A stretch of DNA of 64,000 nucleotides, taken from assembly GCA_964540635.1 (NCBI GenBank), contig CAZINP010000003.1, positions 43,892 to 107,891 on the forward strand, in the 5' to 3' direction. Under the pieces are notes generated by a model. It was not told the origin of the DNA. It did not search any database and was given only the letters and a program-made list of their open reading frames with translations. A program made the translations under genes and the position numbers. This document shows, piece after piece, positions 56,115 to 64,000 of this stretch (position 1 is the first letter of the stretch; each line of letters begins with the position of its first letter). The stretch comes from an uncultured Gammaproteobacteria bacterium (GTDB lineage Bacteria > Patescibacteriota > Patescibacteriia > Buchananbacterales > UBA6539).

Positions 56115-56618
56115 ATGAGAATTATTGGCCAAAAAATATTATTTATCTTGGTTGTTGCCTTATTTTTTTGGCCGTTGCCGTCATCGGGTTTGGGTCTTTT
56201 GGTTAAGCCTCAGAAGTTGGAAGTGATTTCGTCTCCCGCGAATTTTAATGCCACCGAAATTATGGTTTTGAATAATTCCGATCAGCCGGCCATATATTTG
56301 GTTTCTTCGGATGGTTGGCAAAATCAAATTTCAATTGAGCCCAATGAGTTCAAGCTTGAGCCGAACGAATCAAAAGCAGTTAAAATTTACAGTCGCTTTT
56401 TGTGGCCCGGTTCATACAAAACCAACATTGCCGTTATTGCCAAGTCATTGTCGGCAGGGGATGCTTTGGCGGTTCCGGGAGTTAAGATACCTTATAAAAT
56501 TAATATCTCAAATTGGTTTTATGTATTGTTTTTAGGGTTAATTATATTTTTTTGCTTTGTTCTGTTTTTTGCGGTAAAATGGTTATTGTCAATAAAAAGA
56601 AACAAGAATGAATTATAG
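56115..56618 (+). CDS. hypothetical surface protein with N-terminal signal and C-terminal TM anchor
   Basis: Hydrophobic N- and C-termini, beta-rich middle; 11-nt overlap with the next gene. Confidence 0.4.
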   Translation: MRIIGQKILFILVVALFFWPLPSSGLGLLVKPQKLEVISSPANFNATEIMVLNNSDQPAIYLVSSDGWQNQISIEPNEFKLEPNESKAVKIYSRFLWPGSYKTNIAVIAKSLSAGDALAVPGVKIPYKINISNWFYVLFLGLIIFFCFVLFFAVKWLLSIKRNKNEL

Positions 56619-57063
56619 GATTATAAAAAATTTAACCAGGATTTTGGTCGTTTTATTGGTTTTTTTTGCCGGGTTTTGGTTTGGCCGCTTGCAGGTTCAA
56701 GCGCCTGTTCAAAATCTTGATAACACTCAGATTCCGGCTGAAATTTATGTTGACTTAACTATTGATTACGGCTCGGGAAATATTCAGGAATTTAAAGATC
56801 TGTCATTAAGCCCAAAATCAAGCGTTTATGATTTACTCAAGGTTGCAGAGAAATCAAATGGTTTAGGGCTGCAGGTTAAAGATTACGGCTCGGACATGGG
56901 TGTTTTGATTGAGGGTTTGGGAGGGGTTAGTAATAATCCCAGAACCGGCACTTATTGGCAGCTGTGGGTTAACGGTTCATACGCCCAAGTTGGTGCCAGT
57001 GCGTATGAGCTAAATTCAGGTGATAAGGTTGAGTGGAAATATACTAATTCTCAAATTAAATAA
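56608..57063 (+). CDS. DUF4430-like domain protein (membrane-anchored)
   Basis: N-terminal TM; VYDLLKVAEK...GTYWQLWVNGSYAQVGASAYELNSGDKVEWKY parallels the C-terminal domain of the 54335 protein. Confidence 0.55.
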   Translation: MNYRIIKNLTRILVVLLVFFAGFWFGRLQVQAPVQNLDNTQIPAEIYVDLTIDYGSGNIQEFKDLSLSPKSSVYDLLKVAEKSNGLGLQVKDYGSDMGVLIEGLGGVSNNPRTGTYWQLWVNGSYAQVGASAYELNSGDKVEWKYTNSQIK

Positions 57064-57076
57064 TTAAGGATATATT

Positions 57077-57610
57077 ATGAATTTAAAGACAAAAATTTTA
57101 TTTGCCGCCTTCTTGGTTGGCTTGGGTTTATTGGCAAGGTTGGCGCCACATTTTTGGAATTTTGCGCCGATTACTGCCATTGCCCTTTTTTCCGGCGCTT
57201 ATCTTGGCAGACGCTGGGGCGCAATGGTGCCGTTAGCCGCAATGTTTGTTGGTGATTTATTTATTGGTTTTTATGAATGGCCGTTAATGATTACGGTTTA
57301 TGCTTGTTTTGCGCTGTTTGGTTTGGCCGGTTCAATCATTTCCAAGAATAAGAATTTCAAATCGGTTTTAGCTCTTAGTCTCACGGCCTCTATTTCCTTT
57401 TTTATCTTAACGAATTGGGCGGTTTGGCAATTCTCTCCTTGGTATGCCAAAACTTTTTCCGGCTTAATCGGATGTTATACCAATGCTTTGCCTTTCTATC
57501 GCAATACTTTGTTGGGAGATGTTTTTTACACCCTGGCTTTGTTTGGCTCATACGAGTTAGTTAGAAATTATTCCCAGAAATGGCAGCTAAAAGCGATTTT
57601 TTCGCGTTAA
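57077..57610 (+). CDS. small polytopic membrane protein (possible vitamin-transporter substrate-capture/S-component-like)
   Basis: 177 aa with about 5-6 TM helices, rich in W/F/Y; the functional assignment is an inference from context only. Confidence 0.35.
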   Translation: MNLKTKILFAAFLVGLGLLARLAPHFWNFAPITAIALFSGAYLGRRWGAMVPLAAMFVGDLFIGFYEWPLMITVYACFALFGLAGSIISKNKNFKSVLALSLTASISFFILTNWAVWQFSPWYAKTFSGLIGCYTNALPFYRNTLLGDVFYTLALFGSYELVRNYSQKWQLKAIFSR

Positions 57611-57706
57611 AATCAAACAGAAATTTATTTGACCGGCAAGCCTTGCCGGTCTTTTTTTATTTAGATTTATATTGTATAATATAGGGAAGAAAATAAGCAC
57701 AAAACT

Positions 57707-58165
57707 ATGACAGAAAATCAAATTAATCAAAACCTGGCGGATGAGTCAAAGTCTTTTCATGATCAAATTGATGAGGTCAGAGGCATTGCCGAGGAAAATC
57801 TGCATTATATAAAAGCGATTTATCAAGCCAAAACGGACGGCTTGGGTAAGGATGAGGCTGATTTAAGGCAACTGGTTCAGGAAAACTTAAATTTGTCCCA
57901 TGAAATTTATCGTTTGGTTAAAAAAATCAGGAAACAGCTTTTGTGGCAAAAGATTTTTGGCTTTTTGAAATTTTTAATTATCGTTGTTCCTTTGGTGGTG
58001 GGTTCAATTTATTTATATCCCATGCTTCAGGAAATGATTGGAACTTACCAACAAATAACGGAAATGACCAAGGGTAATACGGTTGATGTCTCAAAATTGA
58101 ATTTGGATACCAGTAAGCTTAGCCCGGAAGTTATTCAAAATTTATTAAAACAGATTAAAAATTAA
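57707..58165 (+). CDS. hypothetical coiled-coil protein with one TM helix
   Basis: 152-aa ORF; TM FLKFLIIVVPLVVGSIYLY. Confidence 0.4.
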   Translation: MTENQINQNLADESKSFHDQIDEVRGIAEENLHYIKAIYQAKTDGLGKDEADLRQLVQENLNLSHEIYRLVKKIRKQLLWQKIFGFLKFLIIVVPLVVGSIYLYPMLQEMIGTYQQITEMTKGNTVDVSKLNLDTSKLSPEVIQNLLKQIKN

Positions 58166-58168
58166 CAT

Positions 58169-58588
58169 TTGGCTATGCTCAAAGAGTTTTATAAGTCATT
58201 GCCCAAGAGAACAATTATCTTGCTTTTGATTTTTATCACTTTATTGGCAATTGCCAATACTTATATTTATTTTTACCGTCAGAATATTAAAGGTGTTGTT
58301 AATAAGTATCTTTCCGAAATTACTGTTTGTGAGAATATTAAAGATGAGCAAACTTGTTTTGAAAAGGATTTTTGTGAGGGTATTTATGATAACGACGGCT
58401 CAGTTTTAAGTTTTAAATCTTGTCGTCGCATTAGCAATGAATCAATAGAAAACCAAAGAGCGCAACAACAATTATGCGAAAGAACTCAGGGAACATGGTA
58501 TGTTAATAAGCTTGGCTCGTTTTGTCTTTGCCAGTCAGCCGGTCCGGGAAAAATATTTGATTCAAATAATGGTTGTCTTGATCAATAA
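58169..58588 (+). CDS. secreted cysteine-rich hypothetical protein
   Basis: N-terminal TM/signal; 10 Cys in 139 aa. Confidence 0.4.
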   Translation: MAMLKEFYKSLPKRTIILLLIFITLLAIANTYIYFYRQNIKGVVNKYLSEITVCENIKDEQTCFEKDFCEGIYDNDGSVLSFKSCRRISNESIENQRAQQQLCERTQGTWYVNKLGSFCLCQSAGPGKIFDSNNGCLDQ

Positions 58589-58594
58589 TATATT

Positions 58595-59690
58595 ATGAAA
58601 GAAGTTATCCAAAAATTTAAAGATTTAAAAGACCGCATTTCGGCAACCCGGAGGTTACTTTGACCTGGACAATCTTAAGGCGGAAATAAAAAAATTAGAA
58701 GAAAAAATGATCGCGCCAGATTTCTGGCAGGATCAGGAAAGCGCTAAATCAATTTCCAAGAAATGCGAGAGTTTAAAAAAAACTGTTGGGTCTTGGGACG
58801 AAATTGACAGCGAAGTTTCTGCAAACCTTGAGATTGCTCAGCAAGCAGTTGATGATCTTGATTTGGAAGGAGAGTTAAAAAAAGAATTGAATAAATTAGA
58901 AAAAGAGTACGAGAAACTTGAGTTTCTTGTTTTATTTTCCGGAAAGTATGATCAAAACGACGCGATTATTTCGATTCACGCCGGCACCGGCGGCACGGAA
59001 GCTCAGGATTGGGCGGAAATGCTTTTAAGGATGATAATGCGTTTTTCCGAGAAGAATGATTTTGAAGTTAAGTTAATTGACGAAACGAGAGGGCAGGAGG
59101 CGGGTATAAAAAGCGTAACCATTGAGGTTTCCGGCCCTTATACTTACGGCCATTTAAAATCTGAAGCCGGTGTTCATCGCCTGGTGAGAATTTCACCCTT
59201 TGATGCGGAAAAAATGCGCCATACCTCTTTTGCCTTAATTGAAGTGCTGCCTGTTTTAGACGATAGCGATGATTTTGAAATTAACGAAAAAGATTTAAGA
59301 ATTGACGTTTTTCGTTCCGGCGGCGCCGGCGGTCAAAGTGTTAATCGGACCGATTCGGCGGTGCGCATTACCCATCTGCCTACCAATATTGTGGTAAAAT
59401 GTCAAAACGAGCGTTCGCAGTTGCAGAATAGAAAAACCGCAATGAAGATTTTAAAATCCAAATTAGCCGAATTGTCACAAAAAGCAAAAGGTAAAGAAAT
59501 AGCCGAAATCAGGGGTGAGGTTTTGGAAGCGGCTTGGGGCAACCAAATCAGGTCTTATGTGCTGCAGCCTTACAAGCTGGTTAAAGATCATCGTACTGAT
59601 TTTGAAACCAGCGACCCCGATGCGGTTTTAAACGGAGATTTGGATGATTTTGTCGCGGCTTATTTAAAACATATAAACCAAGTTAAATAA
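58595..59690 (+). CDS. prfB: peptide chain release factor 2 with programmed +1 ribosomal frameshift (join 58595..58660, 58662..59690)
   Basis: Frame 0 reads [22 protein letters not shown] and stops at CTT TGA C, preceded by an SD-like GGAGG. The +1 frame continues [24 protein letters not shown]...[22 protein letters not shown] (GGQ motif). Confidence 0.85.
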
Positions 59691-59706
59691 TAAATTTTAC
59701 TTTTTT

Positions 59707-60636
59707 ATGAAGATTCTTGTTACCGGTGGTGCCGGATTCATCGGTTCGCATTTAATTAAACTTTTATTGGAAAGAGGGGATCAGGTTGTGTGCCTAGATA
59801 ATTTTTTCACCGGCCAAAAAAGAAATATTAATCAATTCTTGGAAAATAAAAATTTTGAGTTGATGGTTCAGGACGTTACCTTGGCAATTGATTCAAAAGT
59901 AGATCAGATTTATAATTTAGCTTGTCCGGCTTCGCCAATTCATTACCAAAAAAATCCGGTTGAAACCGTTAGGACCAATGTTTTGGGGGCGATTAATTGT
60001 TTAGAGCTTTCTAAGAAATTGGGCGGCGTAAAAGTTTTACAAGCTTCAACTTCTGAAGTTTATGGCGACCCCAGTATTCATCCTCAGCCAGAGAGTTATC
60101 ATGGTAATGTCAGTTGCATTGGTCCAAGAGCTTGTTATGATGAAGGTAAGCGTTGTGCTGAGACTTTATTTTTTGACTATCATCGTCAGGATGGCATACC
60201 AATTAAAGTGGTGAGAATTTTTAATACTTACGGTCCGAATATGGCCGCCGATGATGGTCGGGTGGTTTCTAATTTTATTATTCAAGCTTTGAAAAACCAA
60301 GACATAACCATCTACGGCAAGGGTGATCAAACTCGTTCATTTTGCTTTGTTTCCGATCTGGTTTCCGGTTTGATTAAAATGATGGATTCAAATGGTTTTA
60401 CGGGTCCGGTTAATCTTGGCAATCCGGGAGAGTTTACAATCAAGGAATTGGCCGAAATGATTATTGAAATGACAAAGAGTAAGAGCAAAATTGTTTATCA
60501 ATCTTTGCCGGCCGACGATCCCAAGCAGCGAAAGCCGGATATTGCTTTGGCAAAAGCAAAACTTGGCTGGGAACCGACGATTCCATTGAGCCAGGGTCTA
60601 GAAAAAACAATAAATTATTTTGAATCAATAATTTAA
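59707..60636 (+). CDS. UDP-glucuronate decarboxylase (UDP-xylose synthase)-type short-chain dehydrogenase
   Basis: GGAGFIGSH Rossmann fold, NFFTG, YDEGKR catalytic YxxxK region; 309 aa. Confidence 0.75.
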
Positions 60637-60637
60637 T

Positions 60638-61312
60638 ATGAACGATCACGGTGAGAGAAATTTAGAACAGCAAAAACAATTAGCCGAATCATGGTTGTTG
60701 GATTTTGGCGAAAGCCTTAATTCGGCAATCAAAAACCCCGAATCTGATTTTGATCAAATTATGGATGTGGTTTGGGAAAAAGGAATATTGAATCGGATTT
60801 GTCCCGACAGCCAGGAAGTAAAAGCCGCCAGAAAAAATTTAGGCAGGAATGTGTATGAAGGTCAAAAAGAAGATTCTGATCTTTATTGGCGTTTATTAGC
60901 GTCGGCTGAGAACGTGGAGTATGCCGCCAAAAATAGTTTGACCCTTGCTTCCGGTGATCTATCGCCGATGTTTGAGGCCTTTGTGGCAATGAATAGTCCT
61001 GAGATTAAAAGAAGATTTTTTCAGAAAGATGATGACGGTAGGGAACTAGACAAAGTTATTGACGCGATTAGGCAAAAAGCGATTTCTAAAATTTCTGATT
61101 TAGAAAAAAAACAAGTGCCGGCCTTGCCGGCCTATGGTAAAAAGATTAATGTCGCAGGCATTGATTTAAAGGTTCGCTATACGCCTAACGGTCAAATTGC
61201 TTTGGAAGCTTTTAGTCCAGAAGATCATGAAAAAATTGGTCAGATGACTGATTATACCGGTACAATCTCACCCAAAAAATTATTTGAATTAGGTTTTGAA
61301 GAAGTAAAATAA
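60638..61312 (+). CDS. hypothetical protein
   Basis: 224-aa ORF between two sugar-nucleotide enzymes; no recognised motif. Confidence 0.4.
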   Translation: MNDHGERNLEQQKQLAESWLLDFGESLNSAIKNPESDFDQIMDVVWEKGILNRICPDSQEVKAARKNLGRNVYEGQKEDSDLYWRLLASAENVEYAAKNSLTLASGDLSPMFEAFVAMNSPEIKRRFFQKDDDGRELDKVIDAIRQKAISKISDLEKKQVPALPAYGKKINVAGIDLKVRYTPNGQIALEAFSPEDHEKIGQMTDYTGTISPKKLFELGFEEVK

Positions 61313-61319
61313 TAATTAT

Positions 61320-62237
61320 ATGAAAATTTTTGTTACCGGCGGTGCCGGATTCATTGGCTCAAATTTGGTCGATGCTTTAATCGAACTTGGTCATCAGGTT
61401 TGTATTATTGATAATCTGTCAACCGGCCAGAAAGAGAATATTAACCAACAGGCGAAATTTTTTGAACTTGATATTCAGGATAAAAAATTGGCTGAAATTT
61501 TTGAGTCTGAAAAGCCGGAAGTAGTTTTTCATTTAGCCGCCCAGATTGACGTGAGAAAATCCGTAGCTGAACCGGTTGAAGATGCCAAAGCAAATATTTT
61601 AGGCTCGCTGAACCTTTTGGAAAATTGCAAAAAATTTAAAATAAAAAAAATAATTTTTTCTTCCACCGGCGGCGCAATCTACGGCGATTCAGACATTGTT
61701 CCCACGCCAGAATCCGCACCCCAATTGCCAATTTCACCTTATGGTATTGGCAAGCTTTCCGTTGAAAAATATCTTTATTATTACCACATTGTTCATGGTT
61801 TGGATTATACGGTTTTAAGATATGCCAATGTTTATGGTCCTCGGCAAAATTCCCACGGGGAAGCCGGTGTGGTTGCGATTTTTTGCGATAAGCTTTTAAA
61901 AAATCAACCCCCGATAATTAACGGCGACGGCAAGCAAACCAGAGATTATGTTTATGTGGCAGATGTGGTTTCGGCTAATTTAGCGGCCTTAAATTCTTTG
62001 CCCGGCCAAACTTATAATGTCGGCACCGGAATTGAAAGTGATGTTAATAAAGTGGCGGCATTGATTAAAGAGGGTATTGGCAGTGATTTGGATTTTTCAT
62101 ACGGTCCGGCTAAACCAGGCGAGCAAAAACGTTCATGTTTAAATTATGACAAAATCAAAAAGGAACTTGGTTGGTTGCCAAAAACCAGCTTGGCCCACGG
62201 CATAGCCGCCACAACCCAGTGGTTTATAAATAAATAA
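61320..62237 (+). CDS. NAD-dependent sugar epimerase (GalE family)
   Basis: [19 protein letters not shown], YxxxK (YGIGKLSVEKY); 305 aa. Confidence 0.8.
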   Translation: MKIFVTGGAGFIGSNLVDALIELGHQVCIIDNLSTGQKENINQQAKFFELDIQDKKLAEIFESEKPEVVFHLAAQIDVRKSVAEPVEDAKANILGSLNLLENCKKFKIKKIIFSSTGGAIYGDSDIVPTPESAPQLPISPYGIGKLSVEKYLYYYHIVHGLDYTVLRYANVYGPRQNSHGEAGVVAIFCDKLLKNQPPIINGDGKQTRDYVYVADVVSANLAALNSLPGQTYNVGTGIESDVNKVAALIKEGIGSDLDFSYGPAKPGEQKRSCLNYDKIKKELGWLPKTSLAHGIAATTQWFINK

Positions 62238-62245
62238 AAAGTTTT

Positions 62246-62273
62246 TTAAAAAAGGAGCATTGCCTCCTTTTTT
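62246..62273 (+). terminator. rho-independent terminator
   Basis: aggag-cattgc-ctcct followed by T5. Confidence 0.5.
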
Positions 62274-62322
62274 AATTTACTCTCTTGATTATTCTGAATT
62301 TTTATTTTATTATTATTGGCGT

Positions 62323-63027
62323 ATGAGTAAATCGGCCTTATCAAGCTTAAAAAATAACCTCGCGGTTTTAGAGGAAATTATTGAGACTTTCAGCAGCAAC
62401 TTTGAGCTGAGAGAGATTTTAAATAATATTGCTAAAATAATCGGCAAAGTAACAAAGGCTGATTCTTGTTTTATATACCTTATTACCGGCGATGAGGTTA
62501 TTCTAAAGGGTTCGCAAAATCCGCATCATTCCAATTTAGCTAAGATAAAAATGAAATTGGGCGAAGGTATTACCGGTTGGGTGGCCGAGACCAAAAAAAC
62601 CGTTGCCATTTCTCAGAAAGCCTATGAAGACAAGCGCTTTAAACTTTTTTCCGGTTTACCGGAAGATAAATTTGAAGGCTTTTTGTCCGTGCCGATTATT
62701 TTTCAAAAAAAAGTAATTGGCGTCATTAATATTCAACATCGTCGATCAAAAAAATACTCTAAAAAAGATATTAGTTTTATGGAAACGATTGCCAAGCAAA
62801 TCGGCGGCATTTTGGAAGTATCGCGTTTGATCTCTGAGACAAATGTTTTAAAGGAAGCTTTAGAAACCCAAAAGTTAATTGCCAAGGCCAAAGCCATATT
62901 AATAAGATCGGGTAACCTTTCCGAAGAAGACGCTCATAAGCTTTTGGTTAAAAAGAGTATGGATAAAAGAAAAAGTTTAAAAGAGGTGGCCGAAGCTATA
63001 ATTTTAGCCGAAGACGTAGTCAGATAA
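62323..63027 (+). CDS. GAF + ANTAR domain RNA-binding antitermination regulator
   Basis: GAF-like N-terminus. C-terminal ANTAR helix-bundle pattern AKAKAILIRSGNLSEEDAHKLLVKKSMDKRKSLKEVAEAII. Start chosen at MSKSALSS. Confidence 0.7.
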   Translation: MSKSALSSLKNNLAVLEEIIETFSSNFELREILNNIAKIIGKVTKADSCFIYLITGDEVILKGSQNPHHSNLAKIKMKLGEGITGWVAETKKTVAISQKAYEDKRFKLFSGLPEDKFEGFLSVPIIFQKKVIGVINIQHRRSKKYSKKDISFMETIAKQIGGILEVSRLISETNVLKEALETQKLIAKAKAILIRSGNLSEEDAHKLLVKKSMDKRKSLKEVAEAIILAEDVVR

Positions 63028-63036
63028 TTTTTCCTC

Positions 63037-63064
63037 TTGTCAAAAAAAATAATTTTGATAAAAT
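63037..63064 (+). promoter_or_regulatory. promoter TTGTCA-N16-TAAAAT
   Basis: 5/6 match at -35; AT-rich -10. Confidence 0.4.
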
Positions 63065-63070
63065 ATAAAT

Positions 63071-63128
63071 AGGCACAAGGGCGTGCCCAAAAGACATAGA
63101 CGTCATCATAGTTTTGACGGCTTTTTTT
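63071..63128 (+). promoter_or_regulatory. ANTAR-target dual hexaloop hairpins overlapping an intrinsic terminator (amt leader)
   Basis: P1 ggcac-AAGGGC-gtgcc and P2 gac-ATAGAC-gtc, each hexaloop with A1/G4, separated by a 5-nt linker. The P2 3' arm lies inside the terminator 5' arm (cgtca...tgacg followed by T7). Confidence 0.5.
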
Positions 63129-63146
63129 ATTATTAATAAATTAATT

Positions 63147-64000
63147 ATGATTGAATTAAATTACGGCAATACCGCCTTTATGTTGGTTGCCACTGCCTTG
63201 GTGATGATTATGACGCCCGGCTTAGCTCTTTTTTATGGCGGTTTGGTTGGACGCAAAAACGTTTTGGCGATAATGATTCAAAGCTTTATTTCCATGAGTC
63301 TAACAACAATTATTTGGTTTGCTTATGGCTACTCTTTAAGTTTTTCCGGTGATAACTTTGGATTAATTGGCAATTTGGATTGGGCTTTTTTAAGAAATGT
63401 TGATTTGGGCTCACTGCACGCCAACGGTTTTCCAATTTTGGTTTTTATTGCTTATCAGATGATGTTTGCGGTTATTACCCCGGCTCTGATTACCGGCGCG
63501 TTTGCCAACAGGATTAGATTTGGCGCGTATCTTGCCTTTTTAACTCTTTGGCTTACTTTTGTTTATTTTCCGGTTTGCCATATGGCTTGGTCAGCCGACG
63601 GCTTATTAATAAAACTTGGCGTGCTTGATTTTGCCGGCGGTATGGTGGTTCATGCCACAGCCGGTTTTGCCGCCTTAGCTTCGGTCCTATTTGTTGGCAA
63701 GCGCGAACAAGTTACCGAGGCAGCCCACAATGTACCCTTGGTTGCCTTGGGAACCGGCTTGCTTTGGTTTGGCTGGTATGGTTTTAACGCCGGTAGTGAG
63801 TTGGCTGCAGACAGAATAACGGCTTTGGCTTTTTTGAACACGGATATTGCCGCTTCGGTGGCTGCAGCAGTTTGGCTTTTATTGGTTTGGGTGCTGGAAA
63901 AGAAACCGAAATTTGTCGGGCTTTTAACCGGGGCTTTAGCCGGGTTAGTTGCCATTACTCCGGCAGCCGGCTTTGTTACTCCCGGGGCGGCCTTTTTGAT
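63147..64000 (+). CDS. amt: ammonium transporter (Amt/AmtB), 3'-partial at window end
   Basis: MIELNYGNTAFMLVATALVMIMTPGLALFYGGLV...DFAGGMVVHATAGFAAL Amt signature; the ORF continues beyond base 64000. Confidence 0.85.
   Translation, partial: MIELNYGNTAFMLVATALVMIMTPGLALFYGGLVGRKNVLAIMIQSFISMSLTTIIWFAYGYSLSFSGDNFGLIGNLDWAFLRNVDLGSLHANGFPILVFIAYQMMFAVITPALITGAFANRIRFGAYLAFLTLWLTFVYFPVCHMAWSADGLLIKLGVLDFAGGMVVHATAGFAALASVLFVGKREQVTEAAHNVPLVALGTGLLWFGWYGFNAGSELAADRITALAFLNTDIAASVAAAVWLLLVWVLEKKPKFVGLLTGALAGLVAITPAAGFVTPGAAFL

Follow-up and report, generated by a model that had tools for sequence, protein, structure and literature searches.

According to the established model of ANTAR-mediated control, premature termination within the leader of a target transcript is the default outcome, and an active ANTAR dimer placed on two hexanucleotide loops keeps the second of two hairpins (P2) closed, which allows read-through (PMC3369931); a later refinement describes successive binding of the two loops (PMC8934654). 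The features of the RNA site were defined with EutV/EutW from Enterococcus faecalis and include A at position 1 (A1) and G at position 4 (G4) of each hexaloop, stems of at least 3 bp and an overlap of P2 with the terminator (PMC3369931, PMC8934654). Ramesh et al. (2012) described ANTAR RNA matches upstream of genes for PII, ammonium transporter (amt), glutamine synthetase and glutamate synthase in several phyla, at which time no GAF-ANTAR or PAS-ANTAR protein was characterized (PMC3369931). By 2020, the characterized one-component ANTAR proteins were NasR and PAL only (PMC7496416), and a review of 2025 lists GAF-ANTAR as an architecture only (PMC12591593). Our own search of the literature, incomplete in its coverage, retrieved no characterized GAF-ANTAR member and no paper linking ANTAR with Patescibacteria. 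Here, we address a GAF-ANTAR gene and the leader RNA separating it from amt at the 3′ end of a 64,000-nucleotide (nt) stretch of patescibacterial DNA (contig CAZINP010000003.1, positions 43,892 to 107,891, assembly GCA_964540635.1; the whole stretch is hereinafter referred to as the window). The original prediction, made from the letters of this stretch, proposed that ammonium uptake is controlled here by ANTAR-dependent antitermination.

Comparison with the described systems reveals both common and distinctive traits. GnfK/GnfR of Geobacter sulfurreducens is similar in that premature termination in nitrogen-gene leaders (including those of amtB and glnK) is relieved by an ANTAR protein, the site bound by GnfR, CAGGCAANGGCGCC, lying ahead of the nifH, glnK, and amtB terminators (Ueki & Lovley 2010, PMC2995071). 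This site is a GGC/AANGGC/GCC hairpin, and its AANGGC hexaloop is shared with the first hairpin (P1, loop AAGGGC) of the leader considered here. GnfR, however, is a phosphorylated receiver-ANTAR protein having a partner kinase and operating under sigma-54/GnfM control, whereas the window regulator carries GAF on the same polypeptide, needs no kinase and goes with a sigma-70-like promoter. In Clostridium saccharobutylicum and C. acetobutylicum, NitR, likewise an ANTAR antiterminator encoded beside glnA, is reported to induce glutamine synthetase and glutamate synthase (GOGAT) genes under nitrogen limitation (Stutz et al. 2007, as summarized in PMC6316151 and PMC4676874), and the order leader-glnA-regulator in one of our related loci (L012) resembles clostridial glnA-nitR; in contrast, NitR homologues are annotated there as receiver plus ANTAR, with no GAF (PMC4676874), and antisense RNA is also involved. 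EutV/EutW differ in serving ethanolamine-utilization genes and in relying on a phosphorylation-activated receiver. NasR of Klebsiella oxytoca is also a one-component regulator, which combines the ligand domain and ANTAR on one chain and acts at the leader terminator of a nitrogen-assimilation operon, but its NIT domain binds nitrate/nitrite, and its target is the nasF operon instead of amt or glnA (PMC7496416). Against this background, the locus very probably represents an antitermination switch of the one-component ANTAR type that serves nitrogen assimilation, being a well-supported new example of the known switch rather than a new mechanism.

Leader RNA Upstream of amt

Both hairpins with their A1/G4 hexaloops (AAGGGC and AUAGAC in the transcript) and the 5-nt linker reside within 63071-63128, precisely where the original prediction had placed them (Table 1), and the arrangement conforms to the dual-hexaloop description of Ramesh et al. 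(2012). Taken separately, P1 and P2 have predicted folding energies of -7.1 and -2.2 kcal/mol, respectively (RNAfold). The first 35 nt of the leader fold into P1 plus P2 (-10.3 kcal/mol, 95% of the ensemble), while the 60-nt piece adopts P1 plus the terminator with both arms of P2 consumed, reproducing the mutually exclusive structures proposed earlier. The core of the terminator is formed by CGTCA (63101-63105) paired with TGACG (63115-63119) and is extended by AG/CU; positions 63101-63105 are common to P2 and the terminator, that is, the 3′ arm of P2 sits inside the 5′ arm of the terminator. In the minimum free energy fold, the A-run at 63089-63094 is able to pair with the U-run, thereby occupying the 5′ arm of P2.

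The leader is preceded by the top promoter match of the region (consensus scan, 10/12 plus TG), from which transcription is predicted to start at about 63070-63072, i.e., at the foot of P1. Most related loci have a TTGnCn/TAnnnT-type site at the same place upstream of P1. Identity of the downstream gene as amt, assumed in the original prediction, is confirmed by both Pfam and NCBIfam profiles.

Table 1. Coordinates of the predicted features at the regulator-amt locus (positions in the window)
Feature	Position	Strand	Description	Basis
Promoter-like site, regulator gene	62285-62313	+	TTGATT, 17-nt spacer, TATTAT; 9/12	Pattern match only
GAF-ANTAR one-component regulator gene	62323-63027	+	234 aa; stop codon included	Pfam
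GAF sensor domain, PtsP/EI-Ntr type	62407-62817	+	Residues 29-165	NCBIfam, PDB, Foldseek
Predicted continuous 51-residue helix	62761-62913	+	Residues 147-197; joins GAF to first ANTAR helix	DSSP on AlphaFold2 model
ANTAR RNA-binding domain (predicted)	62848-63003	+	Residues 176-227	PF03861
Promoter-like site, leader and amt	63037-63064	+	TTGTCA, 16-nt spacer, extended -10 TGaTAAAAT	Consensus scan
Hairpin P1	63072-63087	+	GGCAC (63072-63076), loop AAGGGC (63077-63082), GTGCC (63083-63087); 5 bp	
Linker	63088-63092	+	CAAAA, 5 nt	From sequence
Hairpin P2, putative antiterminator element	63093-63104	+	GAC (63093-63095), loop ATAGAC (63096-63101), GTC (63102-63104); 3 bp	
Predicted intrinsic terminator	63098-63128	+	Stem AG.CGUCA/UGACG.CU, 9-nt loop, U7 (63122-63128)	Minimum free energy folds
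amt, 5′ 284 codons	63147-64000	+	Continues past the window	Pfam Ammonium_transp (PF00909), 272 bits; NCBIfam amt, 306 bits

Conservation of the Leader

Among 19 species-genome loci, 17 contain GAF-ANTAR genes, and in 16 of these 17, two hairpins and a terminator follow directly 3′ of the regulator. The first covariance model (R1) was built from 15 species-genome leaders; locus L002 was left out of the seed owing to misalignment of its P2 by MAFFT, and the model subsequently aligned it correctly. Searching 99 loci with R1 at E <= 1 gave 31 matches, and every one is on the strand of the regulator. The second model (R2) was built from R1 matches in other genomes, with the window sequence excluded, and assigned 37.1 bits (E 4e-8) to the window site, thus providing a non-circular test that places this site above chance. 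No second leader was found inside the window, the next best hits of R1 and R2 in 64 kb scoring 9.7 and 10.4 bits, respectively. Most matches of both models are located 40-170 nt 3′ of the regulator stop codon, and R2 with filters off adds three more loci (L042, L041, and L039). In total, the leader adjoins the GAF-ANTAR gene in about 35 related loci, including a Thermodesulfobacteriota locus with a regulator just 31% identical, and the expected conservation of hairpins upstream of amt in relatives is observed in L020 and L024. For L043-L099, which originate from soil and other metagenomes and have regulators about 40% identical, no such leader was detected within 2.5 kb, and R2 found no match in 224 kb around the approximately 40%-identical soil-metagenome homologues. 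Thus, the link with this RNA is limited to a subfamily, and RNA targets of the L043-L099 regulators differ or lie elsewhere.

Comparison of 30 distinct sequences demonstrated covariation in P1, where four of five pairs are changed on both sides and 97% of cells are paired; the comparison with controls gives 98.3% of P1 cells paired versus 85% in shuffles and 26-46% with partners slid. The GAC/GUC stem of P2 is invariant in 29 of 30 relatives, L002 having its middle pair flipped to U-A. In the loop of P1, A1 is retained in 27/27, A2 in 25/27, and G4 in 26/27 sequences, giving the family consensus AAnGGC; for the loop of P2 the respective values are 26/30 for A1 and 30/30 for G4. Linkers of relatives span 4-11 nt, with a single one of 23 nt. 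Of the 21 relatives folded, 17 have 2-3 nt from the 3′ arm of P2 in the terminator stem, and this overlap is kept despite differing sequences and strengths of terminators (from -4 to -20 kcal/mol), the stems being much stronger (-16 to -20 kcal/mol) in relatives with higher GC content. A U-tract of at least five residues directly follows the P2-overlapping hairpin in most loci folded.

The P2 loop of two relatives, L001 and L005, is GAAGAC, for which an alternative 4-bp GACG/CGUC stem with an AAGA tetraloop is possible; it represents a natural exception to the A1 rule.

Target Genes and the Second Leader

The gene located 3′ of the leader encodes glutamine synthetase in most loci (confirmed by Pfam in L001, L006, L013, L046, and L062 and assigned in others by near-identical N-termini), while amt occupies this position in the window, in L020 (regulator 90% identical), and in L024 (regulator 59% identical). 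In L024 (2830-4866), another gene for glutamine synthetase (Gln-synt_N/C), the second one, comes after amt, and in the Thermodesulfobacteriota locus (L016), a gene for a protein with the Glu_synthase domain is found 3′ of the leader. At L012 the leader precedes glnA and the regulator comes last, and at L026 the leader stands in front of the regulator gene itself.

Continuation of the locus past the window end was traced on contig L100, which was reached via a cluster member of the regulator (P0124) and is 99.2% identical to 56260-64000 of the window (65 mismatches in 7741 ungapped positions); exact searches with the regulator itself (234 aa) and with its 255-aa database record P0001 matched no contig. 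There, complete amt (401 aa, Pfam 365 bits) is followed by its own strong terminator hairpin (L100 8102-8129, -22.3 kcal/mol), after which come a promoter-like site, another leader and glnA (468 aa from ATG 8282); for a 113-aa open reading frame 3′ of glnA, Pfam gave no match. Lying about 1.4 kb past the window end, this second leader (L100 8169-8210, 40.8 bits) consists of P1 AGCAC/AAAGGC/GUGCU and P2 GAC/AAAGAU/GUC, the latter overlapped by a terminator that carries U6. At least two such predicted switches, for amt and glnA, are thus present in the organism, and since the second leader stands before glnA, the unit extends beyond amt alone to a small nitrogen-assimilation regulon. Antitermination control of amt, as originally proposed, is supported, and these target genes widen rather than correct it. 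Unlike the usual amtB-glnK pair, neighbors of amt in L024 and L100 (6888-10133) include no PII gene (glnK), and tblastn with E. coli GlnB revealed no PII in the window and L100, a search that covers only about 69 kb and does not speak for absence of PII from the genome.

The Regulator and Its ANTAR Domain

Assignment of the adjacent gene as a GAF plus ANTAR protein, claimed earlier, is confirmed by Pfam matches (GAF_2 69 bits and GAF 66 bits, PF01590/PF13185; ANTAR 64.4 bits). The ANTAR match, the absence of which had been named as a possible refutation, exceeds its cut-off of 27.3 bits more than twice and covers positions 3-54 of the 54-position profile. The AlphaFold2 model (confidence score pLDDT 83) consists of the GAF domain followed by helices 147-197, 201-215, and 219-233, which together make up the three-helix ANTAR bundle on a long helical stalk. 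PDB sequence matches of the ANTAR part are EutV, Rv1626, and NasR, and the alignment with EutV 6wsh, Rv1626 1s8n, and NasR 4akk is ungapped. In EutV, the residues contacting RNA are R142, K143, E160, Y164, and M172 (PMC8934654), and they correspond to Q183, K184, E201, H205, and M213 of the window regulator. Thus K143, E160, and M172 of EutV are kept, and all of 60 homologues have K184, E201, and M213, whereas Y164 is replaced with His (H205), conserved in at least 90% of them; position 183 is Q in the window regulator and R in most family members. These correspondences suggest that the regulator may bind hexaloop RNA. Both proteins have a long helix before the ANTAR bundle, and the helix 147-197 is a candidate coiled coil for dimerization and signaling, dimerization being assumed by analogy with EutV (PMC8934654).

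Homologues number 1328 at E <= 1e-3, and the best 120 of these all combine GAF with ANTAR, most of them being 229-247 aa long and a minority of about 400-410 aa. Of 600 pattern matches from the metagenome scan, 576 could be confirmed. Organism names attached to the closest homologues are Candidatus Buchananbacteria or Patescibacteria, and all 14 homologues aligned residue by residue begin at Met equivalent to ATG 62323. Database record P0001 (255 aa) places the start of the regulator at TTG 62260. The longer homologues P0079, P0081, P0087, P0095, P0102, P0104, P0119, and P0120 (about 400-410 aa), one of which is named Elusimicrobia, cover 68-80% of the query and probably carry an extra N-terminal domain.

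GAF Domain and the Probable Signal

The best NCBIfam match of the GAF domain is the N-terminus of PtsP (81.6 bits, profile positions 2-185), NifA being next; the PtsP cut-off of 583 refers to the full-length protein and does not apply to a single domain. Sequence matches in PDB are led by 3e0y, 3ci6 (E 4e-17), and 3trc (E 2e-13), and PtsP GAFs 3ci6 and 3trc are also the top Foldseek matches (template modeling score 0.84-0.86). These two share with the window GAF the motifs D-x-C-x-x-Y-L and E-G-[IL]-x-G, and invariant motifs of the family include D47, C49, and E81-A88 (EGITGWVA). Output of PtsP/EI-Ntr is different, being a phosphoenolpyruvate-dependent phosphotransferase instead of an RNA-binding domain (PMC4848567). 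Cys49 (62467-62469; motif ADSCFIYL) shows no variation among 60 homologues, and 3ci6 and 3e0y likewise have Cys at the aligned position.

The GAF domain of NifA binds 2-oxoglutarate. In EI-Ntr, glutamine bound by GAF is reported to inhibit autophosphorylation, and 2-oxoglutarate has the reciprocal effect in E. coli (PMC4848567, citing Lee et al. 2013, Goodwin & Gage). A PtsP/EI-Ntr-type GAF coupled to a regulon of glnA and amt leads us to infer direct sensing of glutamine and/or 2-oxoglutarate, and most likely the domain reads nitrogen status as glutamine, which would turn the protein off, and/or 2-oxoglutarate, which would turn it on.

The switch may operate as described while GAF perceives another input, such as a cyclic nucleotide, nitrate, redox state at Cys49 or a protein partner. 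GAF domains do bind many ligands, Cys49 is invariant, weaker matches include cyclic AMP/cyclic GMP GAFs (5w10, phosphodiesterase), NreA (nitrate; 19.7 bits, far under cut-off), and fRMsr-type GAFs, and cyclic di-GMP is bound by the ANTAR regulator NasT (PMC10783516). We nevertheless regard this version as rather unlikely, since the best matches by sequence and structure are consistently GAFs of PtsP (EI-Ntr) and NifA, both sensors of nitrogen status, glutamine and 2-oxoglutarate are the natural effectors for a regulon of glnA, amt, and GOGAT, and the presence of Cys in aligned PtsP GAFs makes it a family feature instead of a special redox site.

A broader proposal is that the GAF-ANTAR protein is a self-contained nitrogen sensor working without PII or NtrBC, in which direct binding of glutamine/2-oxoglutarate gates RNA binding, and that it serves as the main, perhaps the only, regulator of glnA, amt, and GOGAT in many Patescibacteria and some other phyla. 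This we put forward tentatively, as a possibility worth serious consideration.

Proposed Mechanism and Alternative Explanations

Transcription from the promoter-like site at 63037-63064 would yield P1 at once, with P2 next. In the default state, the downstream hairpin, being the stronger one, would form, using the 3′ arm of P2 and, via pairing of the A-run with the U-run, its 5′ arm as well, and the terminator with U7 would stop RNA polymerase about 20 nt before amt. The active, presumably dimeric, GAF-ANTAR protein would bind two AnnGnn hexaloops in turn by its ANTAR domains, so that P2 would be held closed, the terminator blocked and the transcript extended into amt. The second leader would act likewise for glnA just 3′ of amt, and high glutamine would switch both genes off.

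Several points weigh against this scheme. All the evidence is computational, and to our knowledge nobody has demonstrated the mechanism of termination by RNA polymerase of Patescibacteria. The window terminator is a weak one (core of 5 bp plus 2, loop of 9 nt, -5.5 kcal/mol, U7 being present) and is absent from the + strand list produced by a simple consensus terminator scan. P2, being near-invariant and 3 bp long, obtains practically no support from covariation and is neutral in this respect; in 4 of 30 relatives its loop has G rather than A at position 1. Five loci with enough flanking sequence (L017, L025, L027, L028, and L037) have no leader. The ligand is suggested by homology of GAF, a fold with very varied ligands. 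Finally, the loose pattern, a pair of A1/G4 hexaloop hairpins within 25 nt, occurs 15 times in the window against 14.6 +/- 3.9 expected from first-order Markov simulations, and with the addition of a T-run, 4 times against 2.8; it was rejected as evidence, not being above chance in the window.

Binding of the ANTAR protein to the leader may instead affect how the mRNA is translated or how stable it is, a mode of action that has been proposed for ANTAR targets of mycobacteria. The weak terminator of the window agrees with that, as does the unusual translation initiation: the 18 nt between the U-tract and ATG of amt (63129-63146) contain no G and no Shine-Dalgarno-like sequence, and the same is true for glnA of L001. 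Overlap of ANTAR matches with ribosome-binding sites was also noted by Ramesh et al. (PMC3369931). Yet P2 is at least 43 nt upstream of the amt start codon and does not overlap it, and both the U-tracts directly after the P2-overlapping hairpin in most loci folded and the strong stems of higher-GC relatives point to termination, making such a mode of action improbable.

Even less credible is that the hairpin with its T-run merely terminates transcription of the regulator gene, P1 and P2 being incidental. The consensus scan found no other terminator between the regulator stop codon (63027) and the T-run, so that read-through transcripts of the regulator would end at this T-run, and about 15 chance occurrences of the loose dual-hairpin pattern are to be expected in 64 kb. 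What makes this version very hard to accept is a good promoter-like site between the stop codon and P1, in the window and in relatives, covariation of P1 together with conservation of loop A1, A2, and G4 across phyla, and the occurrence of the same leader with no regulator gene preceding it, i.e., before glnA in L012, before the regulator in L026, and in the amt-glnA region of L100 after the strong terminator of amt.

In other bacteria, nitrogen genes are indeed under the control of glutamine riboswitches (PMC6316151), but a protein-independent metabolite riboswitch (e.g., for glutamine) situated beside the regulator gene by chance is the least probable option, since the Rfam 15 scan of 62000-64000 gave noise only at E up to 10, with no match to ANTAR, glutamine-riboswitch or other cis-regulatory families, the conserved part comprises two minimal hairpins of 3-5 bp with no pocket-forming junction, and the leader matches the experimentally defined ANTAR/GnfR site (PMC3369931, PMC2995071) and tightly co-occurs with one subfamily of ANTAR genes.

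Other Elements of the Locus

The promoter-like site of the regulator gene ends 10 nt upstream of ATG 62323, inside the longer open reading frame starting at TTG 62260, so that regulator mRNA would be nearly leaderless. In 13 related loci (L002-L008, L010, L011, L014, L015, L023, and L024), a DnaA-box-like element (T)TATCCAC (TTATCCACA) was observed 0-10 nt upstream of the -35 hexamer of the leader promoter (farther upstream in L024 and as ATCCCC in L015). About 0.02 occurrences per 90 nt are expected as background, and the window's own promoter is devoid of the element. A second level of control, exerted at transcription initiation, may use it as a DNA site. The candidate TATCCACA was rejected as a general promoter element of the genome, one match being found in the window versus 1.4 expected.

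A perfect 12-bp palindromic hairpin at 62246-62275, flanked by A- and T-runs and called a terminator on both strands, separates the regulator gene from an epimerase gene ending at 62237. Farther upstream, the segment 59707-62237 contains two paralogous genes for NAD-dependent epimerase/dehydratase (309 and 305 aa) on either side of a 224-aa open reading frame with no Pfam match on record; the same gene order is found on L100.

Implications for Nitrogen Control in Patescibacteria

Both the mechanism and the type of regulon are known, and novelty is bounded by the established ANTAR model and by earlier predictions, made for other phyla, that amt and glnA are under ANTAR control; what is new is the sensor module, hitherto unstudied, and the lineage, Patescibacteria, for which we found no report. 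For the widespread GAF-ANTAR architecture, the analysis offers a candidate ligand along with a concrete regulon that can be tested, namely amt, glnA, and GOGAT-type genes. If true, the proposed sensing would give the first assignment of ligand and regulon within this large and uncharacterized class. A protein of 234 aa together with a leader of about 60 nt could also become a small nitrogen-responsive expression module. For the organism itself, the predicted switch means that the ultra-small and regulator-poor Patescibacteria retain a dedicated post-initiation device for ammonium assimilation, and its retention implies their own uptake and assimilation of ammonium, tuned to supply.

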